From sequence record MT939241.1: 64,000 nucleotides of DNA; one strand, written 5' to 3'. The DNA comes from Enterococcus phage 9183. This document shows, piece after piece, positions 5,570 to 30,840 of this stretch (position 1 is the first letter of the stretch; every line of letters begins with the position of its first letter). A model generated the notes under the pieces. It ran no database searches, was not told the origin of the DNA, and saw only the letters and a program-made list of their open reading frames with translations. The translations under genes were made by a program, and so were the position numbers.

Positions 5570-5580
5570 TCGTTTTTATT

Positions 5581-5610
5581 AAGGTACTCAATTGAGTACC
5601 TTATTTTTTT
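5581..5610 (+). terminator. intrinsic terminator
   Basis: Hairpin aaggtactcaattgagtacctt followed by a T8 run. Confidence 0.7.
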
Positions 5611-5643
5611 TACATAAATAAACGAAATAAAGCTCCTAATATG

Positions 5644-5672
5644 TTTACAATGTCGACTTAGCTTGATATAAT
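5644..5672 (+). promoter_or_regulatory. promoter TTTACA-N17-TGATATAAT
   Basis: Extended -10 TGnTATAAT with a 17-nt spacer to tttaca. RBS AAGGAGG follows. Confidence 0.6.
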
Positions 5673-5702: not shown

Positions 5703-6221
5703 ATGAGTATTAATATTGTTTTAGATGGTCCTAAAGCATGTGGAAAAAGCACAATTGCGAATATGATCATTAATGAATTAGGAAATTGGAAATATATTCA
5801 TTCGGATTCACAAACGAAAAATGATTTAGAATATCATTTAGATCTTTTAAATCAAGGTGAAAATACGGTATTAGATCGTTTTTCATTCGGTGAGGTAATT
5901 TATTCGAAAGTATATGATCGTAAATGTAAACTTACGCCTAGTGAATTTTTGAAGACAGTGACTAGAGAAAATACGATTTACGTCGTTCTTTACTCAAGCT
6001 CAATGATTCTTTTAGAAGAAAGAATAGTAAGGCGTGGAAGAAAAACTGAAGACGAAGAATTAAGTCTCGTTTCGTCTAGCAACAGTTTATTCATTAGGTG
6101 TGCTACTTGGATGCAAGATCAACCTTACTCAGTAAGAAAAAGATACTTAACTTTTGACGTAGCAAAATACACCGCTGAAGAAATCTTTGAAAAGATAAAA
6201 GAAAAAATGGAGGAATTTTAA
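5703..6221 (+). CDS. deoxynucleoside monophosphate kinase (P-loop NMP kinase)
   Basis: Walker A motif GPKACGKST. 172 aa. Sits in the nucleotide-metabolism cluster. Confidence 0.55.
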   Translation: MSINIVLDGPKACGKSTIANMIINELGNWKYIHSDSQTKNDLEYHLDLLNQGENTVLDRFSFGEVIYSKVYDRKCKLTPSEFLKTVTRENTIYVVLYSSSMILLEERIVRRGRKTEDEELSLVSSSNSLFIRCATWMQDQPYSVRKRYLTFDVAKYTAEEIFEKIKEKMEEF

Positions 6222-7055
6222 ATGCAATCATTTGATAATTTAAATGCAGCTTGGGCATGGTTCGCAACAAAAGCTTTAACAGGAAAAAGAGTTGCGGGCA
6301 CAACCGAATTAAATAATGTATCTTTCACGCTTGAAAATATTAATGAAAATTTACTTACAATTCGTGAAAACTTTTCATTATCATATTATTTAGGAGAAGG
6401 AATTTGGTATGGAGCAGGCTCAAATTCTATGGAGTTCATTTCAAGATTTGGAAAAATTTGGGAAAAATTAAGTGATGATGGTGTTACAAATGAAAGTGCC
6501 TATGGATATATTCTAAAGAAAAAATATGGCTTTGATCAAATTGAAAAAATGGTTGAACTTTTAAGTAAAGATCCAAACAGTCGTCGCGCAGTGATGAACA
6601 TTAATTTCGCTCGTAAAAATGTAATTGAAACGAATGATGAACAATGCACTATTGCTTTGCAGCTTTTGCTTCGTGATGGTGAGTTAAATATGACAGGAAT
6701 TATGCGTTCAAATGATTTATGGACGGGAACACCGTATGATATTTTCTACTTCACGGAAATTCAAAAATATATCGCTAATCGTTTAGGTGTTCAATATGGA
6801 ACTTATACTCATTTCGTTACTTCATTGCATATTTATGATCGTGATAAAACGAAAGTAAGTAAATCGATTTTGAATTACTTAAATGATGAAAAAGTTGATG
6901 TTACTATTGATGGTCAACTTTTATTAGAAAGCGCACCTGACTTATATAAGATAATAGGTAAGATTATAGATCCTAAAGAAGCCAAGAAAAAAGCAATTGA
7001 ATTAGCAAAAATAAGAAATATCGTTGGAGGTAAAGACATTGAAAATCAAAATTAA
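6222..7055 (+). CDS. thymidylate-synthase-family pyrimidine C5 hydroxymethylase/methylase, likely dCMP-specific
   Basis: ThyA core aligns well by eye: DPNSRRAV, catalytic Cys in EQCTIALQLLL, MRSNDLWTGTPYDIFYF against E. coli QRSCDVFLGLPFNIASY, and HIYDRD against HLYSNH. The Asn177-equivalent is Asp (PYD versus PFN). Confidence 0.6.
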   Translation: MQSFDNLNAAWAWFATKALTGKRVAGTTELNNVSFTLENINENLLTIRENFSLSYYLGEGIWYGAGSNSMEFISRFGKIWEKLSDDGVTNESAYGYILKKKYGFDQIEKMVELLSKDPNSRRAVMNINFARKNVIETNDEQCTIALQLLLRDGELNMTGIMRSNDLWTGTPYDIFYFTEIQKYIANRLGVQYGTYTHFVTSLHIYDRDKTKVSKSILNYLNDEKVDVTIDGQLLLESAPDLYKIIGKIIDPKEAKKKAIELAKIRNIVGGKDIENQN

Positions 7056-7455
7056 AATGTTTGAGGATGATCCATTATTTAAACCAAAAAGAGCACATTA
7101 CAATGATGCAGGAGCTGATGTTCGATCAACTGTAGATGCTGTTATCTTACCAGGTCAAACTGTAAAAATTCCATTAGGATTTGGATTGGAATTACCCGAT
7201 GGTTACATGGGTGTAATGATGAGTCGATCAGGCCTCGCCTCTAAAGGTCTTGTTTCACAAAATGCTCCTGTTGACTCAGGTTATAAAGGTCAAGTACACG
7301 CTATCTTGACAAATACGACAAATTTATCTATTACAATCGATCGCTTTACTCGTGTTGCACAATTAGTGATCGTTCCAATTATGGTGGCAGATTTCGTTGA
7401 AGAATTTGGAAATGAAAGAACTTCCGACGGTTTTGGAAGCACAGGTATTAAATAA
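7037..7455 (+). CDS. dUTPase-family dNTP pyrophosphatase (trimeric dUTPase fold; dUTP and/or dCTP specific)
   Basis: Motifs AGADV, VDSGYKGQV and the C-terminal RTSDGFGSTG. TTG start at 7037 after GGAGGT is preferred over the track ATG at 7024. Confidence 0.7.
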
Positions 7456-7799
7456 TGATACTTGTCTTTGATTTAGATGGAACGATTTGTGAGGAGAAAC
7501 CGAAAGGTACTCCTTACGCCGCTTATGCGGACGTTCAACCAAAAAGAAAAATGATTGAAAAGATTAAAGAATATCATGATGCAGGTCATAAAATCATTAT
7601 TTATACTGCTCGTCATATGGTTTCTACCAATGGTGATTTAAAAATGATTGAGGAACGTGTTGGTAAAATCACTCGCAATTGGTTAGAAAAAAATAATGTT
7701 CCTTATGATGAATTAATTTTTGGTAAACCATATGGGGATATGTACATTGATGATAAAGCAATGCAGCTTGATCAATTCTTATTGGAGGAAATGCTATGA
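7455..7799 (+). CDS. small HAD-superfamily phosphatase (capless)
   Basis: DLDGTI (motif I), YTAR (motif II), GDMYIDDK (motif IV). 114 aa. Confidence 0.5.
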   Translation: MILVFDLDGTICEEKPKGTPYAAYADVQPKRKMIEKIKEYHDAGHKIIIYTARHMVSTNGDLKMIEERVGKITRNWLEKNNVPYDELIFGKPYGDMYIDDKAMQLDQFLLEEML

Positions 7800-9430
7800 T
7801 TAATAATATCGCTCTTATTCCTGCAGCAGGTAGAGGAACGCGGATGAAATCAGTCACGGATAAATATCCAAAGGCAATGATTCCACATTTAGGAAAACCA
7901 ATTATAGGCCACCAAATTGAATATTTGATAAAAGAAGGCTTTGATAAGGTAGTTATCGTTGTAGGTTATCAGAAAGACATTCTAATGCAATACGTGATTA
8001 AAAATTATGCGGATAAAATTCGTATTTTATTCGCAAATCAAGACGAATTAGATGGACTTGCGACAGCGATTCTTGAAGGAATCAACGCCTTAAACGAAAA
8101 AGACTTATTATTATCAAATCTCACAATTATTCTAGGAGACATTTTACCTCAAGAAGAAATGCCTTATTTTAATGGAGAAAGTTTCATTTGCTATAAAGAG
8201 GTTGATGACTGGCAACGTTGGTGCATGGTTAAAGAACTTTATTCAGGTCGTTTATGTTTTTATGATAAACCAATTGATAAGCCAAACACCAATAAAGCTT
8301 TAATGGGAATTTACATGTTTAATGATATCGATCTATTAAAAGAAAGCATCGAACATATCAAAGAAAAAAATATTCGAATCAATGGGGAATTTCAATTAAG
8401 CTCTGCAATGAATATCTATAATGAACATGTTAACATTAATTTGAAAAAATATGAAAAATTCATTGACTTCGGTCAAGCTGAAGACATTAGTGCCGCAAGA
8501 AAAAATGCTGCTCGTTACTTCAATGATATTTTAATTGAAGATGAGGTAGTAACAAAAAGAAGCACTGATAAAAGTAAAATGTACGACGAATCAATGTGGT
8601 ACCAATTAGCCAAAAATTACTTAGGTGATTATTTACCTGAATGTTATGGCATGACAAAAGAAAATGATGGATATAAAATGAGTCGCATTAAGCTGCCTTC
8701 TCTCCAAGAACAATTCGTCTTTGGAACATTAAGTAGAGTAGAAGCTTACCAATTGATGATTGACTTAATGAATTATTTCAAAGACACGAAAAAATACGGG
8801 ACTAAGCGCCCAAATTTGATTAAAGCAAATCAAGATATGTTTATTAATAAGACAAGAGAACGTATTGAAAAAATCAAAAATATGTTCGATGAAAAATATT
8901 ATGTAATTAATGGAGAAATTAAAGAAAATCCAATTTTTATATTTGAAGAAAAAATCGTTCCTCGTTTAGAGGAAATTATTGCCGATGATAATTATGCCGC
9001 AATGATTCACGGTGATTTATTCTTTGGAAATATGATGTACGATCCAAAAGGAGAAGATGGGCAACGTTTGAAAATCATTGATCCTCGTGGCAAATATGGA
9101 GAAGATAATCGTCTTATGGGTGATATGCGATATGATTATGCTAAATTAAATCATTCAATTTCAGGATATTATGATTTCATTATTAATGGGCTTTATTATT
9201 TGGAAGATAATGGAACTGTGATCAATTATAACTTTTACGATAGTGAAAAGCAGGTAGAAGTACAAGGTTTATTTGAAGATTTACTTTCATTGTCTCATAT
9301 GAAAAAGAAAGATATTGATATGATCACGGGTATCTTGTTCCTATCGATGATTCCGCTTCACAAAGAGAATAAAAATAATCAAATCATTCAATTTGCACAA
9401 GCAATTAAATTTTTAGAATTAGGAGCATGA
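7796..9430 (+). CDS. bifunctional protein: N-terminal sugar/phospho-alcohol nucleotidyltransferase fused to C-terminal APH/choline-kinase-like kinase
   Basis: N-terminus IPAAGRGTRM...KAMIP...GKPII matches the NTP-transferase signature. The C-terminus has the Brenner motif HGDLFFGNMMYD followed by IIDPRGKYGED. 544 aa. Confidence 0.55.
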   Translation: MINNIALIPAAGRGTRMKSVTDKYPKAMIPHLGKPIIGHQIEYLIKEGFDKVVIVVGYQKDILMQYVIKNYADKIRILFANQDELDGLATAILEGINALNEKDLLLSNLTIILGDILPQEEMPYFNGESFICYKEVDDWQRWCMVKELYSGRLCFYDKPIDKPNTNKALMGIYMFNDIDLLKESIEHIKEKNIRINGEFQLSSAMNIYNEHVNINLKKYEKFIDFGQAEDISAARKNAARYFNDILIEDEVVTKRSTDKSKMYDESMWYQLAKNYLGDYLPECYGMTKENDGYKMSRIKLPSLQEQFVFGTLSRVEAYQLMIDLMNYFKDTKKYGTKRPNLIKANQDMFINKTRERIEKIKNMFDEKYYVINGEIKENPIFIFEEKIVPRLEEIIADDNYAAMIHGDLFFGNMMYDPKGEDGQRLKIIDPRGKYGEDNRLMGDMRYDYAKLNHSISGYYDFIINGLYYLEDNGTVINYNFYDSEKQVEVQGLFEDLLSLSHMKKKDIDMITGILFLSMIPLHKENKNNQIIQFAQAIKFLELGA

Positions 9431-9434
9431 TAAA

Positions 9435-10655
9435 ATGGGTAAAACAATCGTTTTTGGAAAATTAGGAAGAACTATACGATTCAACCGCAAGAATTGGAAA
9501 TCAGGTGCTGGCAATAATGAGCCGGCAACATTGCTTTCAGCTTTAGCTAATGCAAATCCTCAAAATAAATATATTATCATTGGTAGAAGTGATTTCTCTC
9601 GTTGTGATGAAGAAACGATAAACTATTGGTTTAAATATGATAATGTTGAAGATGCTTGGGCAGACTATGACAAGAAAAAACATGATCTTTATAATTTCCT
9701 TTATGAAAAATATAAAGATACTCATATTGATTATGGGATTATCAATGGAGGTATCACAGGTAACACAAACTCTCCAGGCTGCTTTATTAAATATGATAAA
9801 GATGGAAATTCAACTGGAGAAAAATTACGTGTGTTAGATGCTATGGCTATTTACGTTGGCCCAATCATTTGCTTATTTAACAAACGAAAAATAAAATGGG
9901 TAAACTTCCATGCAGATGCTCGTCAGTTTCCTATTAAAGGTAAAGATGTTTTCCAACAGCCTGAACTTACAATTGGGACAAGAAATATTGATCGAGTGAA
10001 AATGACATATAAAGATTATGATGATCAAACTGATATTCCTAGAGAAATGAGTATGAGATATGGAATGACTGAAGCTCTCCTTTTACTTGACCCTGAATAT
10101 AAAGATTTTCCTAAAGTTGAAAAAGATATTAAAGTAGGATTCTTCTTCCATAATTATGAAAAAATCAAAAATCGTACTCATGAATTACTTAATTATATTG
10201 ATCAGTTTGGAGAAGATGAAATTTCAGTTTATGGCAAATGGAAAGGTTTTGAGGATCAACCTAAATTTAAAGGTGAATGTACCTTTGATGAGATGCAAGA
10301 AATTTTACCTCGGATCAAATATACACTTTGCTATCCTATCGTTAAAGGTGATATTAGTGCAAAATGGATTGAAGCTGTAAGAGCTGGTATTATTCCTTTC
10401 TTCGATGAAAAATATGATGAAAATCGTTTGCTCGTTGATATTCACAACGTTCCTTCATTCTTATATGTATCTTCACCTGAAGATATGAAAGAAAAAATTA
10501 ACCTGCTTGAAAAAGATCCTCACATTTACAAATCTATTCTTGATTTATTGACTGATCGTTTAGAATATCTTAAAGAAAATGTTCTTTCAATTTATGAATG
10601 TGAAATTGAGGATGCCATTGAAGGCGGCGTTGAAAGATACGATAAAATTTATTAA
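9435..10655 (+). CDS. hypothetical protein, possible GT-B-type (alpha-glucosyltransferase-like) transferase
   Basis: 406-aa ORF in the modification cluster. Only weak by-eye resemblance to GT-B DNA glucosyltransferases (KWKGF segment), so the function is uncertain. Confidence 0.3.
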   Translation: MGKTIVFGKLGRTIRFNRKNWKSGAGNNEPATLLSALANANPQNKYIIIGRSDFSRCDEETINYWFKYDNVEDAWADYDKKKHDLYNFLYEKYKDTHIDYGIINGGITGNTNSPGCFIKYDKDGNSTGEKLRVLDAMAIYVGPIICLFNKRKIKWVNFHADARQFPIKGKDVFQQPELTIGTRNIDRVKMTYKDYDDQTDIPREMSMRYGMTEALLLLDPEYKDFPKVEKDIKVGFFFHNYEKIKNRTHELLNYIDQFGEDEISVYGKWKGFEDQPKFKGECTFDEMQEILPRIKYTLCYPIVKGDISAKWIEAVRAGIIPFFDEKYDENRLLVDIHNVPSFLYVSSPEDMKEKINLLEKDPHIYKSILDLLTDRLEYLKENVLSIYECEIEDAIEGGVERYDKIY

Positions 10656-10679
10656 AAATAAAAATCACGGGCGAATAAG

Positions 10680-10708
10680 TTTACTATTTGCCCGTGTAAT
10701 GATATAAT
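10680..10708 (+). promoter_or_regulatory. promoter TTTACT-N17-TGATATAAT; -35 inside hairpin 10666-10696
   Basis: Extended -10. The hairpin cacgggc...gcccgtg overlaps the -35. Confidence 0.5.
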
Positions 10709-10741
10709 ATAAAAGTAAAAATTATAAAGGATGGTATTTAT

Positions 10742-11266
10742 ATGAGTACGACTTTTAAAGTTAAAAAACACGAAGATAATATCATTCACCTTTATTCTGA
10801 TGGAGGCTGTCGTTCAACGGCAAAGAAAGGTGAAAAAATTAAAGACACCGATAAATGTGCTTACGCTTTCTTCTTAAAACAAGGAGGACACGAAAAACTT
10901 GATGGATTTGCTTCTTATGGAAAGACAAATAATAATCAAGAAATAATGGGATTGCTCATGGGGCTAAGAGCAATTAAACGTCCTGAGTTTCCAGTTATTG
11001 CTTATCTTGATAGCGCTTACGTTGTTAACTGTCTTCAAGCAGGTTGGTGGCGTAAGTGGGAGCAAAATGGGTGGACGAAGAAAGGTGGCCTTGCAAATGC
11101 TGAAGAATGGAAAGCATTAATTAAAGAACTTAAAAGATTTCCATTTTTCTCCATTGAAAAGGTGAAAGGTCATTCAGGTAATGCTGATTATAATGATCTA
11201 GTCGACAAGCATTTAAACAAATTAATGGATGAACTTGAGGAGAAAGGTAAAGGTAATGTATTATGA
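10742..11266 (+). CDS. ribonuclease H (RNase HI-like)
   Basis: YSDGGCRS...DK.AYAF ... EIMGLLMGLRA matches RNase H catalytic architecture. 174 aa. Confidence 0.65.
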   Translation: MSTTFKVKKHEDNIIHLYSDGGCRSTAKKGEKIKDTDKCAYAFFLKQGGHEKLDGFASYGKTNNNQEIMGLLMGLRAIKRPEFPVIAYLDSAYVVNCLQAGWWRKWEQNGWTKKGGLANAEEWKALIKELKRFPFFSIEKVKGHSGNADYNDLVDKHLNKLMDELEEKGKGNVL

Positions 11267-12234
11267 TTTATTTTGGTAAAACTCGTATTAACCTATTTTC
11301 ATATGACGCGTCAGCAAAGCCAAGATTAGATACTGAAGAAATATTAAAAGGAATGGGTTTCACACCTTTAATTGTGTCAGCTTTTGAAGAGGTAAAAGAT
11401 GTAAAATTACGCGTCGAACAAGAACTGGCAAACATAAAAGAAAATGATATCATAATCGTTCAATATCCTTCTTTTAGTTGGAGAGAATACGAAATAGCTT
11501 TTAATGAACAAGCACATAAACAAGGAGCTAAAGTGTTTGCTATCGTTCACGATCTGGAGACATTAAGATGGCCTGGTGATACGTCAGACTTTGAAGTATT
11601 AAATACTTTTGATGCTATTTCATTGCCTTCATATAAAGCTGCAAGCTTTTTAATGAAGAAAGGTTTGAAAACGCCTTTTTACTTCCAGTTCTTTTGGGAT
11701 TATTTATGTGAAAACAATGGGCAAATGTTAGACTTGAATGCCGATATTGTGTATGCAGGAAATATCATTGAACGTAAAACAGAATTTCTTAATGATGTAA
11801 AATTTCCAATACGCCTTTATGGTGATAATATCGAAAATAGAACATTTAGGGAAAATATCACATATGAAGGTAGACGAACGAATGAGGAATTAGTTTTGGA
11901 AATAGGAGGAAATATTGGCTTATCATGGGATAGTAATAATTATTTAGAATATGCAAAATATAATCTTTCATATAAGCCTGCTATGTATTTAGCCGCAAAC
12001 TGTCCTATTATCGTTCATAATAAAACGAACATAGCAAGAATAGTTGAAGCTTATAATTTAGGTAAAGTTATAGGTGATTTAAAATATGATACAGTTTTAA
12101 AAGCTGTCGTTGATATTAAGAAAGAACGTGAAAGATATGCAGAAGCAACTCTTGCATTTGGACAAAATTTAAGAGATGGAAGATGTTTGAAAAATTTAAT
12201 AGAAAGGATGTTGACTTCACAAGATGCATATTGA
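11263..12234 (+). CDS. GT-B fold glycosyltransferase, T4 beta-glucosyltransferase (Bgt)-like
   Basis: By-eye similarity to the T4 Bgt C-domain: ADIVYAGNIIERKTEFLNDVKFPIRLYGDN against LDVIYGGSFRSGQRESKMVEFLFDTGLNIEFFGN. The N-domain has a comparable layout. Confidence 0.45.
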   Translation: MIYFGKTRINLFSYDASAKPRLDTEEILKGMGFTPLIVSAFEEVKDVKLRVEQELANIKENDIIIVQYPSFSWREYEIAFNEQAHKQGAKVFAIVHDLETLRWPGDTSDFEVLNTFDAISLPSYKAASFLMKKGLKTPFYFQFFWDYLCENNGQMLDLNADIVYAGNIIERKTEFLNDVKFPIRLYGDNIENRTFRENITYEGRRTNEELVLEIGGNIGLSWDSNNYLEYAKYNLSYKPAMYLAANCPIIVHNKTNIARIVEAYNLGKVIGDLKYDTVLKAVVDIKKERERYAEATLAFGQNLRDGRCLKNLIERMLTSQDAY

Positions 12235-12478
12235 AATGTATATTTTTGATCAATGTTTCGTCGATCATGCAAATTATTTAGAGACAAGAGTTGGAGAAGG
12301 TTATAAGGTTTATCAATTCCAACAGTCAGGTGGAAATCCTCCATTTAGTCCTATTTATTCTATTAAATTTAGAAAGTTGCTTAAATATAAATGGTACAAT
12401 AATTTTCATGGTTGGTTATTTAAATATAGGAGAAAACGTTTTGTTGAAAAAGAATTAGGGAGGAAATACGTTGGCTAA
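12224..12478 (+). CDS. hypothetical small basic protein
   Basis: 84-aa ORF filling the gap before tdk. No convincing RBS. Confidence 0.3.
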   Translation: MHIEMYIFDQCFVDHANYLETRVGEGYKVYQFQQSGGNPPFSPIYSIKFRKLLKYKWYNNFHGWLFKYRRKRFVEKELGRKYVG

Positions 12479-13079
12479 ATTAATCTTCTTTTATGGGGCA
12501 ATGAAAAGTGGTAAAAGCATGGAAATTGCTAAGACATATACGAACTACAAAATTAAAGGACAAGATCCAATGGTTTTTAAACCTTCGATCGACACTCGTG
12601 ATAAAAACATTAAGTCAAGATTAGGTATTGAAATTCCTTGTGAAGTTATAAAACCTGATGAAGATTTAAATAGGAAAATTTTTATTGATCGATTTTCACA
12701 AAAATTGCCTCCTGTCGTTTTAATTGACGAGGCGCAATTTTTAAGTGACAAACAGGTTCGTGAATTGGGAGTAATTGTTGATGTAGGCAATATTGACATA
12801 ATTTGCTTTGGTTTAAAAAATGATTTTAAAGGCAAACTATTTGAAGGATCAAAGGCATTAATTGAGGAAGCTGATAAGTTAGTTGAAGTTAAGACATTAT
12901 GTGCTTTTTGTAACCGTAAAGCAACTCATAATCTTTTAACTGAAATTCATGATGATGGAAAAAGATATGCAGTTGACACTTCAGTTGAAGGAAACTTAAG
13001 GATCGGCGACGAAGATTTCTTTCAGTGTTGCCGAAAACATTATTATCAATATTCAACACGCACGCGTGAAATTAAATAG
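12471..13079 (+). CDS. tdk: thymidine kinase
   Basis: FFYGAMKSGKS P-loop and a C-terminal zinc ribbon (CAFCNRKATHN ... FQCCRKH). TTG start after GGGAGG. Confidence 0.85.
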   Translation: MAKLIFFYGAMKSGKSMEIAKTYTNYKIKGQDPMVFKPSIDTRDKNIKSRLGIEIPCEVIKPDEDLNRKIFIDRFSQKLPPVVLIDEAQFLSDKQVRELGVIVDVGNIDIICFGLKNDFKGKLFEGSKALIEEADKLVEVKTLCAFCNRKATHNLLTEIHDDGKRYAVDTSVEGNLRIGDEDFFQCCRKHYYQYSTRTREIK

Positions 13080-13090
13080 GATTTTTAATG

Positions 13091-13118
13091 AAGGTTCGTT
13101 TACATAGCGAACCTTTTT
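13091..13118 (+). terminator. intrinsic terminator overlapping next promoter -35
   Basis: Hairpin aaggttcgtttacatagcgaacctt followed by a T6 run. The loop contains tttaca. Confidence 0.65.
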
Positions 13119-13127
13119 TGATATAAT
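13099..13127 (+). promoter_or_regulatory. promoter TTTACA-N17-TGATATAAT
   Basis: Consensus match. Drives the polymerase gene. Confidence 0.6.
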
Positions 13128-19439: not shown

Positions 19440-19661
19440 TTGATGAATTTTAGTCAAGCTTTTGATACCGTCAGTCAACGAGAAGGAACGTTTATGCGTT
19501 TGCCTCAATGGAAAGAGGACGTAAAAATTCGTGCTCAATTTCCTGATGAATACAGTAAAATGAGTCATCCTTACCTATATGTGGAATCGCGTTTTGGTAA
19601 TGTACCTTGGATTCCAACACAGGTTGAAATGTTTTCAAATAAATGGGAGGTAGGAATTTAA
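19440..19661 (+). CDS. hypothetical protein
   Basis: 73-aa ORF. Confidence 0.5.
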   Translation: MMNFSQAFDTVSQREGTFMRLPQWKEDVKIRAQFPDEYSKMSHPYLYVESRFGNVPWIPTQVEMFSNKWEVGI

Positions 19662-20404
19662 TGAGAAAATTTGAAGTAGTAAGTGCCTATAAGGACAAAG
19701 AAATTAATTTGCCAATGCGAGCAACTCCTCATTCAGCAGGTTATGATTTTGAGGCTGCAGAAGATATTGAAATCCCTTCATTCTTCGTGGGTGTTCGTCA
19801 GTTGATGACATATATTGAGGATAGAATCGATCAATCAAATAATCATCCAATGGATGAACGAACATACGAAAGGTTGATGAGATATGAAGAAGAAACTGAT
19901 GAAATATCTAGACACCTATCTGAATATGAACAGCTTCCTGTTGCATATGTTAAAGAGCTTTTATCGTTAATCGATGATATTCTCGACGATGATGAAACTT
20001 CATGCTTAGAAGCTGTTGAAGATTTCCGTAAAAAATTAAAACCTACGTTAGTTCCTACAGGAATTAAAGCTTGCATGCATAAAGATGAATTTTTAGGATT
20101 ATACAATCGTTCTTCAAATCCATTAAAACGAATGCTCGTATTGGCAAATGGCGTTGGAGTTATTGATAGTGACTATTACGATAATGAAGACAACGAAGGC
20201 CATATCATGTTCCAATTTATTAATCTAGGATTCCTTCCTGTAAAGATTAAGAAAGGCGAACGAATTGGGCAAGGTATCTTCCAAAAATTCTTAACAGTTG
20301 AGACAGTTGAAGAAACGCGTGAAGATACAAGAAGCGGTGGTTTTGGTTCAACAGGTGTTGACGACACTATTCCTGGAGAAATGTTTGAAAAAGAGGTGCT
20401 TTAA
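19661..20404 (+). CDS. dUTPase-family dNTP pyrophosphatase with a roughly 100-aa insertion between motifs 1 and 3
   Basis: Motifs SAGYDF, VIDSDYYDNEDNEGHI, RIGQGI and RSGGFGSTG. ATG at 19661 after GGGAGG is preferred over the track start at 19643. Confidence 0.6.
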   Translation: MRKFEVVSAYKDKEINLPMRATPHSAGYDFEAAEDIEIPSFFVGVRQLMTYIEDRIDQSNNHPMDERTYERLMRYEEETDEISRHLSEYEQLPVAYVKELLSLIDDILDDDETSCLEAVEDFRKKLKPTLVPTGIKACMHKDEFLGLYNRSSNPLKRMLVLANGVGVIDSDYYDNEDNEGHIMFQFINLGFLPVKIKKGERIGQGIFQKFLTVETVEETREDTRSGGFGSTGVDDTIPGEMFEKEVL

Positions 20405-23375: not shown

Positions 23376-25313
23376 ATGTCTGACAAAATTAGAAAATTAG
23401 ATGATAGAGCACAAGCACGTGAGAAATTAAGTATTTGGTACGGATCACGTGATAACTTCTATCATGGTATTAAAGAGCTTATCGCGAATGCCGCCGATGA
23501 ATTACGAAATCATGCGACAGATCCGGGTAAAATTGAAGTTACACTTTATGAAGGAAATCGTCAAATTATGGTTAGTGATAACGGACGAGGAATTCGTATA
23601 GGTGGTGAAACTGATGGTGAAAAGAATTATGATCTTTTATTTAGAACATTGTTCGCAGGTACAAAATATGACGTCACTGAATCGGTTACGACAGGAACGA
23701 ATGGTGTAGGAACGACTGTCTTAAACTTTACATCGAAGCTGTTCGCAGTAATGTCTCATTACGATGGTTTCGTTCATAAAGTTCGCTTCAAAAATGGTGG
23801 TGAATTAGATGGGGAATACACCGAAATGAAATTAGAAAAAGGTATGAAAGATGTTCATGGTTCAACTTTTGTCGTTGAATTAGATGAAACTATTTATCCT
23901 CATGTCGAATTTTCTCCTGATAAAGTAAAAGAAATCGTTCAACATTTTGCAGCTGCTACATTAGGCGTAGAATTTACATTTAATTATCTTGATCAAAAAG
24001 AAGTATTTAAATATGAAGACATTCGTGAACGTTTCGAAGAAATGATTGGATCAACATCAACTTCAGCGATCTTTACATTGGGTGAAATTGAAAATGTAAC
24101 ATCAGTTGAAATCGTTGATGGAGATAAAGATGTTGAAGAAAAAAATAGTTACAATATTATGTTAACATCAACTCCTGACGTTTACCAAGAATCATACTTA
24201 AATATGACTTGGCTTGAAAATGGTGGAGCTATTAATGAAGGTATTCTTGATGGTGTTCGTTTATTCATGAATAAGTATTGCCGCACCAATAAATTATTTC
24301 CAGGAAAGATCACCGCATTTTCAAAGGATGATGTTGAATCATCAATTTCTTTCTTAGCTTTCACTGAATCAAATATCGTCGAATTTTCTAACCAAACTAA
24401 GTTAAGTACAAATAAGAAAAAATATAGAGACGAAGCAAAAGATTATGTAATGAATTTGCTCACAGCTGTTTCAATGCAACAACCTAAAGATTTCAAAAAG
24501 CTCGTTGATCATCTTCTTATGGTTCAAAAAGCAAATGGAGCTAACGAACGTGCTCGTCAAAAATTAAAGAAACAGTTAACTGAAAAAGTTTCAGGAATTG
24601 GTAATAAAATTGAAAAACTGATCGACAGTGAAAAACATGGATTAGATGCAGAACTCTTCTTAACAGAAGGTGACTCAGCCAATGGGTCGATCGTTGATTC
24701 TCGCAACGATGAGTTCCAAGCTGCATTTCCTTTACGAGGTAAAGTTCTTAACGTTCTTAAAGCACCACTTGAAAAGATCTTTAAAAATGCGGAAATTGTG
24801 AATATGGTAAAAATCATTGGAACAGGTATCACTGATGGAAAGAAAAATGATTTTGACATTAATAATTTACGCTTTGGAAAAATCATTATCACAACTGACG
24901 CGGATGCGGATGGTGGACACATTGCTTCATTATTGATCGCGTTCATCTATCGTTTCATGAGACCTTTACTTGAAAATGGCCATGTTTACGTAGCACAAAC
25001 GCCTTTATATGAATTGAAGTTTCCTGATGATTCAGTTGTTTACTTTTTAACTGAAGATGAAAAAGAAAAGAACATTGGTAAATATGAAGGACAAAAATAT
25101 GTTATCCAACGTCTTAAAGGATTGGGAGAAGTTGATGCTGAAACAATGGAAGCAACAACGATGAATCCTAAGACGCGAAATCTATTACAATTGACGGTCG
25201 CCGATGGAGAAGCAAATTATGCGATGATAAATAATTGGATGGGTGACGATGTAAATCCTCGTAAGAAATTAATTGAAGAGCAACTTCATAATTACATTAA
25301 CGATATTGATTAA
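23376..25313 (+). CDS. type II DNA topoisomerase ATPase/TOPRIM subunit (GyrB/T4 gp39-like)
   Basis: GHKL-type N-terminus (ELIANAADE, GRGI) and the TOPRIM motif LTEGDSANGS. 645 aa. Confidence 0.75.
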   Translation: MSDKIRKLDDRAQAREKLSIWYGSRDNFYHGIKELIANAADELRNHATDPGKIEVTLYEGNRQIMVSDNGRGIRIGGETDGEKNYDLLFRTLFAGTKYDVTESVTTGTNGVGTTVLNFTSKLFAVMSHYDGFVHKVRFKNGGELDGEYTEMKLEKGMKDVHGSTFVVELDETIYPHVEFSPDKVKEIVQHFAAATLGVEFTFNYLDQKEVFKYEDIRERFEEMIGSTSTSAIFTLGEIENVTSVEIVDGDKDVEEKNSYNIMLTSTPDVYQESYLNMTWLENGGAINEGILDGVRLFMNKYCRTNKLFPGKITAFSKDDVESSISFLAFTESNIVEFSNQTKLSTNKKKYRDEAKDYVMNLLTAVSMQQPKDFKKLVDHLLMVQKANGANERARQKLKKQLTEKVSGIGNKIEKLIDSEKHGLDAELFLTEGDSANGSIVDSRNDEFQAAFPLRGKVLNVLKAPLEKIFKNAEIVNMVKIIGTGITDGKKNDFDINNLRFGKIIITTDADADGGHIASLLIAFIYRFMRPLLENGHVYVAQTPLYELKFPDDSVVYFLTEDEKEKNIGKYEGQKYVIQRLKGLGEVDAETMEATTMNPKTRNLLQLTVADGEANYAMINNWMGDDVNPRKKLIEEQLHNYINDID

Positions 25314-25407: not shown

Positions 25408-25665
25408 ATGTATTTTGAATCAAAAGAATTGTCTTTAAAACAAAAGACACGACGAGTAATTGAAATGAGCAATGAGATTAATTCAACATTGGACGTTTAT
25501 CGTTCAATCATGGTGAAATATGAATTAAATAAGAAATTGGAAAAAGAAGATCTCGCTCTTCTTGAAGAAACAATTGAACGATTTGATCGTTCACAATTAA
25601 AATTAGAAGATGTTCTCTTCGGCGTATTAGAACAACATCGATTTTTAGGAGGCAACAATGATTAA
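25408..25665 (+). CDS. hypothetical protein
   Basis: 85-aa ORF with RBS AAGGAG. Confidence 0.5.
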   Translation: MYFESKELSLKQKTRRVIEMSNEINSTLDVYRSIMVKYELNKKLEKEDLALLEETIERFDRSQLKLEDVLFGVLEQHRFLGGNND

Positions 25666-27661
25666 TAAAATTGAAGTAGGATCACATTTAAATAGCGCTA
25701 TGATGGGTATGTCTGCTTATGCATTACTACAACGGGCAATTCCCGATTATCGTGATGGCTTTAAACCTGTTCATCGACGAATCATTACTTCAATGGTTCA
25801 AAATAAAACATTAAACTTCACTAAGTCAGCCACAGTGGAAGGAAGAATCATGCAGCTGCATCCACATGGAGGATCATATGGATCAATTGTTGGTCTTGTT
25901 CAAAAAGATAGAAATAATTTACCTTTCTTAATAGGTAAAGGATCTTGGGGACAAAATACATCTAACGATCATACTCCTGCTGCAGCTCGTTACACCGAGG
26001 TAAAATTGGGCGATAATGCTTTAGAAATCACTAAAGAATTAAAAGAAAATAGTGTTGATTATGTACCTAATTATGATGGGACAATCATGGTACCTGAAGT
26101 CTTACCTGTCACATATCCTTCTATTTTAACACAATCACAAAGCGGGATGGCTATTGGTTTTGCATCATCAACATTGTCTTATAACATTCATGAATTATAT
26201 GATGCTATTGAAGATGTACTCATGATGAGACCAATGAAAACAATTTATCCTGATTTTCCAACAGGTGCATCAATCATTGAAGATGATGAAGCTGCAAAAG
26301 AAATCATTCGCACCGGTCGAGGATCTTTAAGAATGAGAGCGAAAATAGAAGTAGAAGGAAATAAAATTATCGTTCATGAAATTCCTTATGGTGCTAAACG
26401 AGAAGCTATCATCAATAAGATCATTGATTTAAACAAGCAAGGAAAATTGAAAGAGGTAACTGACGTTCGTGATGGAACATCATTTAAAGGAATGAAGATT
26501 GTCGTCACTGTTCGTAAGAATGCGGACATCAAAGAGGTAATCGCAAAGCTTTATAAATGGACAGCTTTACAAAGTTCAGTTTCATCCAACTTAAACGTTT
26601 TGATTGATGGGAAACCTCAAGTCGTCGGCGTAGAAGAATTATTAATTAAATGGCTTGGATGGAGAATGAAAGTAATTCGTCGAGGTATGCAAAATAAGAT
26701 CGATAAAATGATGAAAGAATTAAACGTTTTGATCGGACTTCGAAAAATTACGTCAGTCGATGAAGCAATTAAAATCATTCGTTTTTCAAAAGATAATGAA
26801 GTTGAAGAAAAGCTAATGAAAACATTTGACTTGAATTATGAACAAGCTGAATACATTGGTAAAATGACTTTACGTTCATTAAATGAAGAACGTATTCAAA
26901 AGAAAATTCAAGCGATCGACGAATTGGAAAAAGAAATTGATCAGTTGAAGAAAAACGAAAAAAATGACGGATATATCAAGGAAGAAATTAAACGTCGTAT
27001 GAAAGAAACGATTGAAAAAATTAATGCACCTAAACGTCGTACGAACGTAATCACGATCTCTGAAAAAGAAGAGAAAATCGTTAAGAAAGTTGCTAAACAA
27101 GAAAAAATTGGTAGTGATCACGATGTGACTGTCACAGTTACAAAAAATGGATGGGCATACAAAACAGATCGCTCAGGAAAAGAAAGATTCAAGATTCTTG
27201 CGGGTGACGAAATTCGTTATCAAGTACAAATGAAAAACAATGAAAAATTTACTACATTATTAAATGATGCTCTAGCAGGTTTAATTTGTGTAAATGATAT
27301 TGATGAAACTATTGGAATATTCTTGCCGACGTATTTTGAAAAAGAAGATTATATTGCTTGCATTTTTCCAGGACAAGAAACAAACGAATTACTTTTAGGA
27401 TATAATGATGGGCATATTGTTCGTGTACCTATTGAACAATACTCTGAAGCGTCAAGACGGATTTTAAAAAATGCTTACTGGAAAGACGAACCTTTAGTGT
27501 TAGTCCATCAAATTCGATCAAAAGATTCATCTATCGTCATCGAGTATGATGGAAAGGTTAAAAATATTGACATTGACAAAATAAATGTTAAACAATGGAG
27601 AGCTTCAAGAGGTCAATCTATTGTGAAAGTAAAAGAAAAAGTTGTAATGAATGTAGAATAA
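25658..27661 (+). CDS. type II DNA topoisomerase DNA-cleavage subunit (GyrA/ParC/T4 gp52-like)
   Basis: N-terminus AYALLQRAIPDYRDGFKPVHRRII is the GyrA-box region that precedes the catalytic Tyr. 667 aa. Confidence 0.75.
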   Translation: MINKIEVGSHLNSAMMGMSAYALLQRAIPDYRDGFKPVHRRIITSMVQNKTLNFTKSATVEGRIMQLHPHGGSYGSIVGLVQKDRNNLPFLIGKGSWGQNTSNDHTPAAARYTEVKLGDNALEITKELKENSVDYVPNYDGTIMVPEVLPVTYPSILTQSQSGMAIGFASSTLSYNIHELYDAIEDVLMMRPMKTIYPDFPTGASIIEDDEAAKEIIRTGRGSLRMRAKIEVEGNKIIVHEIPYGAKREAIINKIIDLNKQGKLKEVTDVRDGTSFKGMKIVVTVRKNADIKEVIAKLYKWTALQSSVSSNLNVLIDGKPQVVGVEELLIKWLGWRMKVIRRGMQNKIDKMMKELNVLIGLRKITSVDEAIKIIRFSKDNEVEEKLMKTFDLNYEQAEYIGKMTLRSLNEERIQKKIQAIDELEKEIDQLKKNEKNDGYIKEEIKRRMKETIEKINAPKRRTNVITISEKEEKIVKKVAKQEKIGSDHDVTVTVTKNGWAYKTDRSGKERFKILAGDEIRYQVQMKNNEKFTTLLNDALAGLICVNDIDETIGIFLPTYFEKEDYIACIFPGQETNELLLGYNDGHIVRVPIEQYSEASRRILKNAYWKDEPLVLVHQIRSKDSSIVIEYDGKVKNIDIDKINVKQWRASRGQSIVKVKEKVVMNVE

Positions 27662-30129: not shown

Positions 30130-30603
30130 ATGAAAAAATTAAACGAAATGACAGCAAAAGAACTTAAGGAAATGGCGAAAGAACAAAACATCAAAAATTG
30201 GTGGAAAATGAATAAGGAGCAACTTATCGTTGCTCTTTCTCAAGGAGACAAAGTTGAAGAAACTAAAGAGGAAAATACTAAGGAGGAAACACAAATGAAT
30301 AAAGAAGAAAACATCTCAATCATCGAAAAAGTTTACCAAATGTTAGAAAATGAAAGTGATGAAGTTAAACGACAAATCGCAAATAAACTTCTTAAAGATA
30401 CTAAGAAGAAAAAAGAAAAAATTGAAATCGTCGTTGATGATGAAACATTCACTTTCGAGTCATTACGACAAGCACACATCACTCTTAGCGAGAAATATGG
30501 TTTTACTTACTATGGTATTAAAGCTTTACTTGAAGGTAATGAAAATCATAAAGGTTACAAAGCAATGATGAAAGATCATAAAGTAACAGGAAAATTCTTA
30601 TAA
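30130..30603 (+). CDS. Rho-N/SAP-like helix-extension-helix domain protein
   Basis: N-terminus MTAKELKEMAKEQNIKNWWKMNKEQLIVAL resembles the Rho termination factor N-terminal motif. Confidence 0.45.
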   Translation: MKKLNEMTAKELKEMAKEQNIKNWWKMNKEQLIVALSQGDKVEETKEENTKEETQMNKEENISIIEKVYQMLENESDEVKRQIANKLLKDTKKKKEKIEIVVDDETFTFESLRQAHITLSEKYGFTYYGIKALLEGNENHKGYKAMMKDHKVTGKFL

Positions 30604-30802: not shown

Positions 30803-30840
30803 AATAAAAAAAAAATGAGGAGCTAAATGCTCCTCTTTTA
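30803..30840. terminator. bidirectional terminator at the strand-switch (A10 - gaggagctaaatgctcctc - T4)
   Basis: Palindromic hairpin between the convergent modules. Confidence 0.7.

Follow-up and report, generated by a model that had tools for sequence, protein, structure and literature searches.

A predicted operon for glycosylated 5-hydroxymethylcytosine with its own sugar-activation module in Enterococcus phage 9183

In phage T4, a ThyA homolog produces 5-hydroxymethyl-dCMP before replication and GT-B enzymes glycosylate the base after replication. The pathway comprises the gp42 dCMP hydroxymethylase, the gp1 dNMP kinase, the gp56 dCTPase, which is MazG-like (PMC13326640), and alpha- and beta-glucosyltransferases that use host UDP-glucose without any sugar-activation genes. 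The Enterococcus faecalis siphophages VPE25 and VFW have cytosines that are bisulfite-resistant, and their DNA is resistant to EcoRI and MspI and sensitive to PvuRts1I, which was interpreted as glycosylated 5-hydroxymethylcytosine (5hmC) (Duerkop et al. 2016, PMC4999554). The VPE25 modification is known from this enzyme and bisulfite behavior rather than from a chemical definition. In RB69-like relatives of the T-even phages (RB69, DLP3, and HY126), whose DNA carries arabinosyl-5-hydroxycytosine, AfhF and AfhE, the latter a sugar kinase and pyrophosphorylase, serve to make UDP-arabinofuranose (Lee et al. NAR 2026, PMC13326640). The same work sets out N177D, L143D/E, and D169N as specificity rules for the ThyA family (PMC13326640).

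We compared these systems with a locus of Enterococcus phage 9183, an Enterococcus faecium siphophage (Denvervirus) that is 94.5% identical to phage Planchet and that differs from T4 in virion type, in its DnaE polymerase, and in its Gram-positive host. The window analyzed was a stretch of 64,000 nucleotides (MT939241.1), in which the low GC content (0.27–0.40), the siphovirus type, and a DnaE polymerase gene were all seen as first described. The first-pass annotation had reported a contiguous, co-oriented block ending at 12234, and an ORF check located every one of its ORFs on the + strand at the coordinates given. RNase H is interleaved as had been claimed, but the thymidine kinase gene lies just beyond 12234; the natural unit is 5703–13079. 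This unit forms a single compact early operon, bounded by terminators, in which neighboring genes touch or overlap. The features are as follows.

5580–5603, + strand: terminator-like hairpin, the likely upstream operon boundary
5644–5672, + strand: extended -10 promoter-like site (TTTACA-17-TATAAT with TG), the likely operon promoter
5703–6221, + strand: P-loop nucleotide kinase, 172 aa, YorR/TMK-like (PHROG 761 "thymidylate kinase" 1.3e-13; PDB YorR 3kb2 3.5e-5)
6222–7055, + strand: 277-aa member of the ThyA family, its active site of the dCMP hydroxymethylase type (Pfam Thymidylat_synt 2.1e-23)
7024–7455, + strand: trimeric dUTPase-family dNTP pyrophosphatase (Pfam dUTPase 7.9e-21; PDB dUTPases 5e-22)
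7455–7799, + strand: small HAD phosphatase, 114 aa, AfhF-like (HAD_PNKP 2e-7; TIGR01689 4.6e-21)
7796–9430, + strand: fusion of an N-terminal sugar-1-phosphate nucleotidyltransferase and a C-terminal APH/ChoK-fold kinase, AfhE-like (Pfam, NCBIfam)
9435–10655, + strand: 406-aa GT-B glycosyltransferase (GT406) with a T4 Bgt-like fold (structure comparison)
10680–10708, + strand: weak internal promoter-like site, in the sole sizeable intergenic gap of the block
10742–11266, + strand: 174-aa RNase H with a role in replication (Pfam 5.2e-17; 87% identical to the VPE25 protein)
11263–12234, + strand: 323-aa Gtf3/WbbI-like GT-B glycosyltransferase (PDB Gtf3 3qkw/3rhz 1.5e-15)
12224–12478, + strand: conserved 84-aa ORF overlapping both neighbors (orthologs in Planchet, VPE25, and nattely, 51–95% identity)
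12471–13079, + strand: thymidine kinase, last gene of the unit (Pfam TK 5.6e-33)
13090–13116, + strand: terminator-like hairpin that closes the unit
13099–13127, + strand: promoter-like site 5′ of DnaE
19643–20404, + strand: second dUTPase-family protein, 253 aa, with an N-terminal extension of ~130 aa (Pfam dUTPase 7.3e-15, residues 134–238)

The promoter- and terminator-like sites derive from a consensus scan in which the total number of promoter matches was not above chance, but those agreeing with the consensus at 11 of 12 positions were located in the intergenic gaps. A family search with the 84-aa ORF gave no match.

VPE25 and VFW likewise belong to the Andrewesvirinae, and they are collinear with 9183 over the kinase, ThyA, dUTPase-family, RNase H, Gtf3-like, small ORF, thymidine kinase, and DnaE genes. 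Identities between VPE25 and 9183 range from 47% to 87% (dUTPase-family protein 77%, thymidine kinase 63%, ThyA homolog 55%). The earlier statement that such a modification is not described for this phage type is thus half right, given that these collinear members of the same subfamily were reported in 2016 to carry modified and apparently glycosylated cytosines. The two loci differ between the dUTPase-family and RNase H genes: a single T4-type b-gt (352 aa) is found there in VPE25, and the HAD phosphatase, the fusion, and GT406 take its place in 9183. Homologs of these three proteins are absent from VPE25, nattely, and two further loci (L007 and L008).

The ThyA homolog had been proposed to be a pyrimidine C5-(hydroxy)methylase, and its active site agrees with this. 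Its best PDB match is MilA (3.5e-28), whereas thymidylate synthase scores 2e-12, and the NCBIfam thymidylate synthase equivalogs all fall far under their cut-offs. The signature E58, W80, Y94, D(143), C146, N168, D169, G173, and D177 fits T4 gp42 and not the HY126 5-hydroxylase. The ThyA homolog and gp42 share every residue around the C5 site except that at position 142 (11 of 12), at an overall identity of only 29%. Within this signature, N177D and the Asp at the L143 register are cytosine-type changes, and D169, W80, and G173 are kept. D169N, which marks 5-hydroxy-dCMP synthases, is absent (MRSND as in gp42, versus MRSQN in HY126), and HY126 has A and V in place of W80 and G173; without D169N, the enzyme is predicted to be a hydroxymethylase rather than a hydroxylase. 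The same pattern recurs in 120 of the 120 nearest homologs and, identically, in VPE25. As judged from these residues, the active site is cytosine-specific and of the hydroxymethylase type, and not that of a canonical thymidylate synthase. The protein is nearer to MilA (mildiomycin biosynthesis, PDB 5b6d) than to gp42 and resembles MilA in having Asp at position 177 as well as at the L143 register, with D169 retained. MilA itself belongs to an antibiotic pathway and uses a ribonucleotide, CMP, as its substrate; in 9183 the phage replication context would argue for dCMP.

The genes flanking the ThyA homolog fit a supporting role in nucleotide supply. The upstream gene, first called a dNMP kinase, does encode a P-loop nucleotide kinase, but the dNMP specificity depends on weak similarity, with Pfam matches that are sub-threshold only. 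YorR is also the nearest neighbor published for DLP3 gp78 (PMC13326640). The kinase gene adjoins the ThyA homolog also in VPE25, nattely, and three further loci (L007, L012, and L013), and the protein may phosphorylate 5-hydroxymethyl-dCMP, an assignment that is weak. The dUTPase-family gene, which invariably adjoins the ThyA homolog in relatives and whose start is uncertain (TTG at 7024 versus 7039 in the Planchet annotation), would supply a dCTPase or dUTPase activity. The dCTPase role is unproven because its dUTPase motifs are fully canonical, and the protein family differs from that of T4 gp56. The second dUTPase-family protein, kept in VPE25 and L012, could instead be the enzyme that depletes dCTP.

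Profile and structure matches bore out the calls made for the dUTPase-family, HAD, fusion, and RNase H proteins. The HAD phosphatase matches PDB entries 1xpj (2.7e-18) and 9iqw (3e-9), carries DxD, T, and K/DD motifs in the alignment, and is 35% identical to HY126 AfhF over 106 aa (E = 2e-15). In the fusion, an NTP_transferase domain (residues 6–237, 6e-18) precedes an EcKL/fructosamine-kinase-like domain (308–438); the protein is 25% identical to HY126 AfhE over 485 aa spanning both domains (E = 4e-19) and has the GxGTR, HGDxxxxN, and IDPRG motifs in common with it. An activation module of this kind had been described as lacking in T4, which is true for T4 itself but not for its RB69-like relatives. 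The HAD, fusion, and GT406 genes stay linked in five other loci (L006 and L010–L013), and in jumbo-phage contigs the HAD and fusion genes adjoin hmC-type ThyA homologs, in L015 together with an AGT-family glycosyltransferase. In L010 and L011, no ThyA homolog was found within 10 kb of the cassette, which may thus sometimes serve an acceptor other than 5hmC.

One of the two glycosyltransferases had been credited with a T4 Bgt-like C-domain. T4 Bgt is indeed the nearest fold to GT406, and T4 AGT is among the top ten, but the likeness spans the whole fold. GT406 has Bgt-like nucleotide-binding residues and a modest profile match to Bgt (probability 55–65%); pairwise and Pfam-level comparisons with Bgt gave no significant match. 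The 323-aa enzyme is a clear sequence homolog of the Gtf3/GtfC glucosyltransferases, which glycosylate serine-rich-repeat adhesins, and of the galactofuranosyltransferase WbbI; these known enzymes extend a sugar that is already in place. It matches NCBIfam beta-1,6-galactofuranosyltransferase models (PRK09814; 2e-31, under the cut-off), an ortholog carries Pfam Gtf3_N/Gtf3_C, and the VPE25 ortholog is 48% identical. We propose that GT406 glycosylates 5hmC in DNA directly and that the 323-aa enzyme may extend this first sugar, in which case its acceptor would be a sugar on DNA, whereas known members of its family act on glycoproteins or LPS. Neither glycosyltransferase could be assigned to non-DNA substrates, although the characterized Gtf3 enzymes glycosylate proteins and not DNA.

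With moderate confidence, we favor the reading that the operon replaces deoxycytidine in phage DNA with 5hmC, which is glycosylated from a phage-made sugar nucleotide and then extended by the Gtf3-like enzyme, each catalytic step being predicted from homology. The dUTPase-family pyrophosphatase would yield dCMP or dUMP and hold unwanted dNTPs down, and the ThyA homolog would convert dCMP to 5-hydroxymethyl-dCMP with methylene-tetrahydrofolate. The adjacent kinase and host kinases would then produce the triphosphate for incorporation by the DnaE replisome. In parallel, on the model of AfhE and AfhF, a host sugar phosphate would receive a 1-phosphate from the fusion kinase, lose its distal phosphate to the HAD enzyme, and be converted to an NDP-sugar by the nucleotidyltransferase. 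After replication, GT406 would move this sugar onto the hydroxymethyl group in DNA, and the Gtf3-like enzyme would attach a further sugar. The cytosine-type ThyA active site and the Bgt-nearest glycosyltransferase uphold the T-even logic first proposed for this operon, and the initial interpretation as a whole is partly supported, its gene observations being confirmed.

Other readings share some of this evidence. The AfhE/AfhF homology, the clustering of a MilA-like ThyA homolog with a TMK/YorR-like kinase and GT-B transferases as in DLP3 and RB69, and the best PDB relatives (MilA, 1xpj, and YorR, as reported for those clusters) would all fit a flavin-dependent 5-hydroxy-dCMP synthase and DNA bearing ether-linked arabinosyl-5-hydroxycytosine, with no methylene bridge. 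This system is reportedly also treated in He et al. Nat Chem Biol 2026. We consider it unlikely in 9183, however, since the diagnostic D169N is missing while W80 and G173 are kept, and since neither the 64-kb stretch nor the complete Planchet genome encodes an arabinose-5-phosphate isomerase, the HY126 386-aa (RB69 gp50-like) protein, or an HY126-type glycosyltransferase. Moreover, VPE25 encodes an ortholog of the ThyA-family enzyme, and PvuRts1I, which is specific for 5hmC and g5hmC, cuts VPE25 DNA. The Afh phages differ from 9183 in host and virion type. Similarly improbable is a division of labor in which nucleotides are the substrates of just three proteins (the ThyA homolog, the kinase, and the dUTPase-family protein), and in which one or both glycosyltransferases work with the HAD phosphatase and the fusion on a target other than DNA: teichoic acid or a polysaccharide of the host cell wall, for superinfection exclusion, or else a protein of the phage or its host. 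The adhesin substrates of the Gtf3 family, the TIGR01689 label "capsule biosynthesis phosphatase", the cell-envelope sugar-nucleotide enzymes related to the nucleotidyltransferase domain, and the cassettes of L010 and L011 point that way. Against it, the cassette occupies exactly the position at which collinear relatives have b-gt, inside an operon of translationally coupled genes for nucleotide metabolism and replication, GT406 most resembles a DNA-modifying enzyme, and the jumbo-phage cassettes again flank ThyA homologs. In cultured phages, homologs of the fusion and HAD occur, Planchet aside, almost only where the DNA contains glycosylated cytosine.

The APH/choline-kinase/EcKL fold of the kinase domain and the match of the nucleotidyltransferase domain to CTP:phosphocholine cytidylyltransferase (1jyk, 1e-9) could instead suggest LicA/LicC-like activation of phosphocholine, phosphoethanolamine, or another alcohol phosphate, with either 5hmC or the first sugar as the point of attachment. 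We give this little credence, because AfhE shows the same LicC and ChoK resemblances (PMC13326640), the module is conserved together with a GT-B glycosyltransferase that has Bgt-like nucleotide-binding residues and not with a LicD-type phosphotransferase, and the LicA/LicC route needs no bisphosphate-trimming HAD. Ordinary nucleotide metabolism, with a thymidylate synthase, a plain dUTPase, unmodified DNA, and glycosyltransferase genes that are unrelated morons, would agree with database entries that label the ThyA-homolog gene "thymidylate synthase", with the canonical dUTPase motifs, and with the general salvage theme of the TK, dNK, and GMK genes. It is highly improbable, given the equivalog scores and the demonstrably modified DNA of collinear VPE25; in addition, N177D with an acidic L143-register residue is incompatible with dUMP methylation, according to mutagenesis work as it is cited in PMC13326640.

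The glycosylated-cytosine reading of VPE25 and VFW and the AfhE/AfhF-type module were known already; what is new is the exchange of the glucose-adding enzyme for a module predicted to make the phage's own activated sugar. Because this module lies exactly in the slot of a UDP-glucose-using b-gt and no arabinose-5-phosphate isomerase was found, the sugar is probably not from host UDP-glucose and not necessarily arabinose, and 9183 DNA probably carries a sugar not yet described on 5hmC. The modification likely serves as a shield against the restriction and CRISPR nucleases of the host. C-containing palindromes are depleted in the 64-kb stretch, GAATTC most of all, which counts against the full reading in that fully protected cytosines would not obviously need such depletion. 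Planchet encodes a further Bgt-family glycosyltransferase, PLANC_101, outside the corresponding stretch, so glucose may also be used.

Each of the open reading frames that the first-pass annotation had assigned to a candidate cytosine hypermodification island was found in the window, in the same orientation and tightly packed, and the low GC content it described was also evident (0.27–0.40 in the window). Because most of these genes overlap or abut, the natural unit extends from 5703 to 13079. A consensus scan located, at 5580–5672, a terminator-like hairpin together with a promoter-like site of the extended −10 type, and another terminator-like hairpin (13090–13116) immediately 3′ of the thymidine kinase (TK) gene. 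The TK gene had been counted as part of the island and is indeed present, although it is positioned just past the end coordinate originally proposed. The genes considered here are listed below; those of the unit share one orientation.

5703–6221, P-loop kinase (172 aa)
6222–7055, ThyA homolog
7024–7455, dUTPase-family protein
7455–7799, small HAD phosphatase (114 aa), hereafter HAD
7796–9430, nucleotidyltransferase-kinase fusion protein (544 aa), hereafter the fusion
9435–10655, putative glycosyltransferase of 406 aa, hereafter GT406
11263–12234, Gtf3-like glycosyltransferase (323 aa)
12471–13079, TK
19643–20404, second dUTPase-family protein (253 aa), with a dUTPase domain in residues 134–238 only and an unassigned N-terminal extension of ~130 aa

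Profile searches agreed with the proposed identities of the ThyA homolog (Thymidylat_synt, 2.1e-23), the dUTPase-family protein (dUTPase, 7.9e-21), HAD, RNase H, and TK, and the fusion was likewise found to join an N-terminal sugar-phosphate nucleotidyltransferase to a C-terminal EcKL/fructosamine-kinase-like domain. The weakest assignment is that of the P-loop kinase as a "dNMP kinase", for which Pfam matches were sub-threshold, PHROG 761 matched at 1.3e-13, and YorR was the best solved relative (3.5e-5). Over the full 7.4 kb queried, this region shares 94.5% DNA identity with Enterococcus phage Planchet (OX422066), and the ThyA homolog is 100% identical to a protein of Enterococcus phage TJE4. 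Planchet, a siphophage with a genome of 86.5 kb that infects vancomycin-resistant E. faecium, is classified in the genus Denvervirus, subfamily Andrewesvirinae. The genes together form a genuine, coherent operon for hypermodification of cytosine in DNA, in which the hydroxymethylcytosine route of T4 and VPE25 is combined with a sugar-nucleotide supply cassette of the Afh type to form a hybrid.

The ThyA homolog belongs to the thymidylate-synthase fold and family (PF00303), and its best PDB match was the CMP 5-hydroxymethylase MilA (3.5e-28), followed by thymidylate synthases (~1e-12) and T4 gp42 (3e-7). The catalytic Cys146 and the residues of the phosphate and folate sites, R166, S167, H207, Y209, E58, and W80 (E. 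coli numbering), are kept in this protein and in all 120 of its 120 nearest homologs. At the position of Asn177 it carries Asp (PYDIFY versus PFNIAS), and the Leu143 register is occupied by the Asp of an NDEQC motif, three residues N-terminal of the catalytic Cys, as in T4; the latter placement was read from the ungapped register, because one MAFFT run introduced a gap at that point. The N177D change is associated with recognition of cytosine instead of uracil, and an acidic residue in the L143 register admits water, such that the product carries a hydroxymethyl group and not a methyl group. Twelve residues line the C5 site, and the ThyA homolog departs from T4 gp42 at only one of them, position 142. 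This C5-site signature is common to 120/120 nearest database homologs and is also present in the ThyA homologs of VPE25, the relative nattely, the metagenomic relative L008, contigs L012 and L013, and jumbo phages.

Two other activities were considered for this protein. A thymidylate synthase was judged unlikely on the basis of N177D and of the NCBIfam thymidylate-synthase equivalog models, every one of which scored far under its cut-off. A cytosine 5-hydroxylase would be the partner of the Afh-type module in the phages where that module has been described. The substitution of Asp169 by Asn is diagnostic for 5-hydroxy-dCMP synthases (Lee et al., NAR 2026, PMC13326640) and is found in RB69 gp48, DLP3 gp80, and phage HY126. 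An alignment with E. coli ThyA, T4 gp42, and the HY126 homolog, which is experimentally characterised as a 5-hydroxy-dCMP synthase homolog, revealed that this substitution is absent from the window protein: Asp169 is retained within the motif MRSND...GTPYD (MRSND versus MRSQN in HY126). Trp80 and Gly173, both lost from HY126, are also retained, and the hydroxylase assignment is not favoured. Because of the active-site signature, the likeness to MilA and gp42, and the sub-cut-off thymidylate-synthase scores, we predict that the ThyA homolog is a folate-dependent dCMP hydroxymethylase (dCMP + CH2-THF to 5hm-dCMP).

The first-pass annotation had also noted an extra small-molecule activation module. 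The module is present, although it proved to be of a known kind, as direct comparison with the HY126 cluster proteins demonstrated homology to AfhE and AfhF. In RB69, DLP3, and HY126, AfhE (a nucleotidyltransferase-kinase fusion) and AfhF (a small HAD protein) convert arabinose-5-phosphate via the 1,5-bisphosphate and the 1-phosphate to UDP-arabinofuranose, whose sugar is then joined to 5-hydroxycytosine by GT-B enzymes (PMC13326640); this work is also attributed to He et al. 2026, as cited in PMC13326640. The fusion aligns with HY126 AfhE across both domains (25% identity over 485 aa, E=4e-19) and has GxGTR, HGDxxxxN, and IDPRG motifs in common with it, and HAD aligns with HY126 AfhF (35% identity over 106 aa, E=2e-15). 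PDB matches to HAD included 1xpj (2.7e-18), which is also the published top match for RB69 gp51 and DLP3 gp81 (PMC13326640), and 9iqw (3e-9). The latter is labelled "capsule biosynthesis protein" and its accession falls in one series with that of 9iqz, the structure of the HY126 glycosyltransferase; our guess is that 9iqw is AfhF itself.

Other components of the HY126 pathway were sought. No SIS-domain protein or arabinose-5-phosphate isomerase was present among the window ORFs or the Planchet hypothetical proteins, and tblastn with the HY126 isomerase returned nothing at E<=1, whether in the window, in the full Planchet sequence, in contigs L010–L013, or in VPE25 (L014). Neither the HY126 386-aa protein nor the HY126 glycosyltransferase is present in the window, anywhere in the Planchet genome, or at the cassette loci. 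PHROG 1238 matches HAD (2.4e-28) but bears the label "phosphoheptose isomerase", which misfits the 114-aa HAD fold and looks like an annotation borrowed from a neighbouring gene.

Across the entire region, the window and VPE25 are collinear. Identities are 47% for the kinase, 55% for the ThyA homolog, 77% for the dUTPase-family protein, 87% for RNase H, 48% for the 323-aa glycosyltransferase, 52% for a small ORF, and 63% for TK, and DnaE, the second dUTPase-family gene, and guanylate kinase follow downstream in both. The order kinase, ThyA homolog, dUTPase-family protein, glycosyltransferase, RNase H, Gtf3-like glycosyltransferase, TK, DnaE is thus kept between the window and the VPE25-type locus, and the sole structural difference resides in the interval between the dUTPase-family gene and RNase H. 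This interval holds a single T4-type b-gt gene in VPE25, nattely, and metagenomic relatives L007 and L008, where no homologs of HAD, the fusion, or GT406 occur. In the window, Planchet, L006, and L012, the same interval holds HAD, the fusion, and GT406, and the window has no T4-type b-gt at the glycosyltransferase slot. The replacement of b-gt by the cassette at a fixed slot is well supported by these observations.

The modification enzymes are more diverged from their VPE25 counterparts (47%, 55%, and 48%) than are the interleaved housekeeping genes (77% and 87%), a pattern that fits enzymes having either co-adapted to another sugar or been acquired separately. In L006, the closest metagenomic relative, an extra 187-aa ORF (L006:10791–11354) without a Pfam match lies between the ThyA homolog and the dUTPase-family gene, and it is absent from the window and Planchet.

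Glycosylated cytosine had been thought not to be described for this phage type, a claim that does not hold. Cytosines of VPE25 and VFW are bisulfite-resistant, and the DNA of these phages is refractory to EcoRI and MspI and susceptible to PvuRts1I, from which Duerkop et al. (2016, PMC4999554) concluded that the cytosines are glycosylated, probably as glucosyl-5hmC; the authors also remarked on b-gt and a second "nucleotide sugar synthetase-like" gene. The bisulfite, MspI, and PvuRts1I data pertain to VPE25 and VFW only.

The family of GT406 is very small, with 23 clusters found among 5.8 billion proteins, and by sequence the protein is nearly an orphan. The suggestion that it is a Bgt-like glycosyltransferase was borne out by modelled fold and not by direct sequence comparison. 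A Pfam profile search did not match PF09198 (the T4 Bgt family, CAZy GT63), BLASTP against T4 Bgt and nattely Bgt gave nothing significant, and the family profile found no meaningful match in the PDB. Alignment of the family with five Bgt-family proteins by hhalign gave a modest result (probability 55–65%, E=6e-5), in which invariant D161, R247, K310, and E313 are paired with Bgt D100, R195, R269, and E272, with low alignment confidence in the N-domain. The reference residues on the Bgt side are the catalytic Asp100 and the UDP-binding Arg191, Arg195, Arg269, and Glu272. An AlphaFold model built from the family alignment was confident (pLDDT 91.6, pTM 0.88) and was used in place of a single-sequence model (pLDDT 31), which was discarded. 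A Foldseek search with this model returned T4 beta-glucosyltransferase entries as the top PDB matches (~1e-9), and GT406 is predicted accordingly by modelling to adopt a two-domain GT-B fold with Bgt as its nearest relative.

The 323-aa protein is unambiguously assigned by sequence to the Gtf3 family of GT-B enzymes (3qkw/3rhz, 1.5e-15; Pfam Gtf3_N/Gtf3_C on a 95%-identical ortholog). Characterised members of this family add a sugar onto an existing sugar, and DNA is not their acceptor. Planchet encodes a fourth glycosyltransferase, PLANC_101 (388 aa; OX422066 77238–78404, equivalent to L003:15239–16405, minus strand; outside the window), ~21 kb from the operon. It has a PF09198/T4-Gluco-transf N-domain (5.8e-10), and its C-terminus is 30% identical to GT406 over 104 aa. 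No counterpart is visible beside the ligase gene of VPE25. The presence of PLANC_101 makes mixed glycoforms possible in Planchet.

The most likely mechanism as a whole is one in which dCMP would be converted to 5hm-dCMP, phosphorylated, and built into DNA. In parallel, the fusion and HAD would convert a host sugar phosphate to an NDP-sugar, GT406 with its Bgt-like fold would transfer the sugar onto the hydroxymethyl group in DNA, and the 323-aa Gtf3-like enzyme would extend this first sugar. Computation gives good support to an active site of the hydroxymethylase type, to the homology of the module with AfhE/AfhF, to the likeness of the GT406 fold to Bgt, and to the replacement of b-gt by the cassette. 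We infer the substrates of the kinase and the dUTPase-family protein, the use of DNA as the acceptor by both glycosyltransferases, the order of the steps, and above all the sugar. That a UDP-glucose-using enzyme has been swapped for a self-supplied pathway argues for a sugar other than glucose, and the lack of an isomerase points to a starting sugar phosphate that the Gram-positive host already contains. We tentatively propose, with somewhat less than even confidence, that the base in Denvervirus phages (TJE4, Planchet, and 9183) is a hitherto undescribed one, 5hmC O-glycosylated with a phage-activated sugar drawn, without an isomerase, from a central-metabolism sugar phosphate, with a pentofuranose (ribose or arabinose) as one possibility and with Gtf3-like extension.

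As far as we found, AfhE/AfhF-type modules have so far been studied only in Gram-negative myoviruses that make 5-hydroxycytosine. We found no literature on DNA modification in Planchet, 9183, TJE4, or Denvervirus, nor on an AfhE-type module that either operates with a hydroxymethylase or resides in a Gram-positive phage; Bullen et al. 2024 describe phage phi47, whose DNA is unmodified. Here such a module accompanies a ThyA homolog of the hydroxymethylase type in a siphophage of a Gram-positive host, a combination from which a new glycosylated base is predicted, and its occurrence in therapeutically relevant E. faecium phages is a specific and cheaply testable prediction. If true, the AfhE/AfhF module would be a portable cassette for hydroxymethylcytosine and hydroxycytosine routes alike, serving Gram-positive siphophages and jumbo phages besides T4-like myoviruses. 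The arrangement illustrates how the exchange of cassettes at one fixed slot in the genome diversifies the DNA sugars of phages. The collinear pair of VPE25 (b-gt) and Planchet/TJE4 (cassette) constitutes a natural experiment on the benefit of a different sugar. Planchet and 9183 are under development against vancomycin-resistant E. faecium. Which modification their DNA carries is relevant to host range, given type II and type IV restriction and CRISPR. The type of modification also matters for sequencing and engineering these phages and possibly for innate immune sensing.

The triad of HAD, fusion, and GT406 was also recovered elsewhere. In L013 it occurs in altered order, adjoining the same pair of ThyA homolog and dUTPase-family gene, and in L010 and L011 it occurs with no ThyA homolog within 10 kb. 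In these last two phage contigs of ~100 kb (L010:5758–11200 and L011:5602–11215), the cassette is flanked by an unassigned 483–519-aa protein and interrupted by one of 219–230 aa that faintly resembles HipA-like kinases; in L011, a gene for a MazG-like PRA-PH protein and a SASP gene lie nearby. HAD and the fusion are additionally present in two jumbo-phage-like contigs of ~0.5 Mb, L015 (558 kb) and L016 (476 kb), where HAD, a DUF1653 protein, and the fusion sit beside a ThyA homolog with the hydroxymethylcytosine signature and a dCMP deaminase. In L015, a T4 AGT-family glycosyltransferase is located beside this locus. Both contigs also carry a TMK-like protein (UDG-fused in L016) and a nucleoside deoxyribosyltransferase-like protein. 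That such large fusion-bearing contigs are cellular genomes was considered and rejected, as they look like jumbo phages. Among 50,697 cultured-phage records the fusion was found in 233, of which Planchet is the only Gram-positive phage and nearly all others are T4-like myoviruses.

The dUTPase-family protein of the operon has canonical motifs and the look of an ordinary dUTPase; because the motifs are canonical, they do not decide between a dCTPase and a dUTPase. The second dUTPase-family protein is kept in VPE25 (58%) and L012, and one of the two paralogs may be a dCTP-depleting enzyme. Palindrome statistics provided an indirect test of cytosine protection. Over the whole window, GAATTC (the EcoRI site) was observed 4 times versus 24.8 expected (z ~ −5), and CATG, TCGA, and ACGT were depleted too but GATC was not. 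Because C-containing palindromes remain depleted, this test is uninformative or mildly contrary.

Elsewhere in the window, type II topoisomerase subunits resembling GyrB/ParE (23376–25313) and GyrA/ParC (25658–27661) are phage-encoded. The minus strand carries a small Rho_N-domain protein (30130–30603) and a tyrosine recombinase (30838–31815; Planchet annotation), although virulence has been ascribed to this phage.
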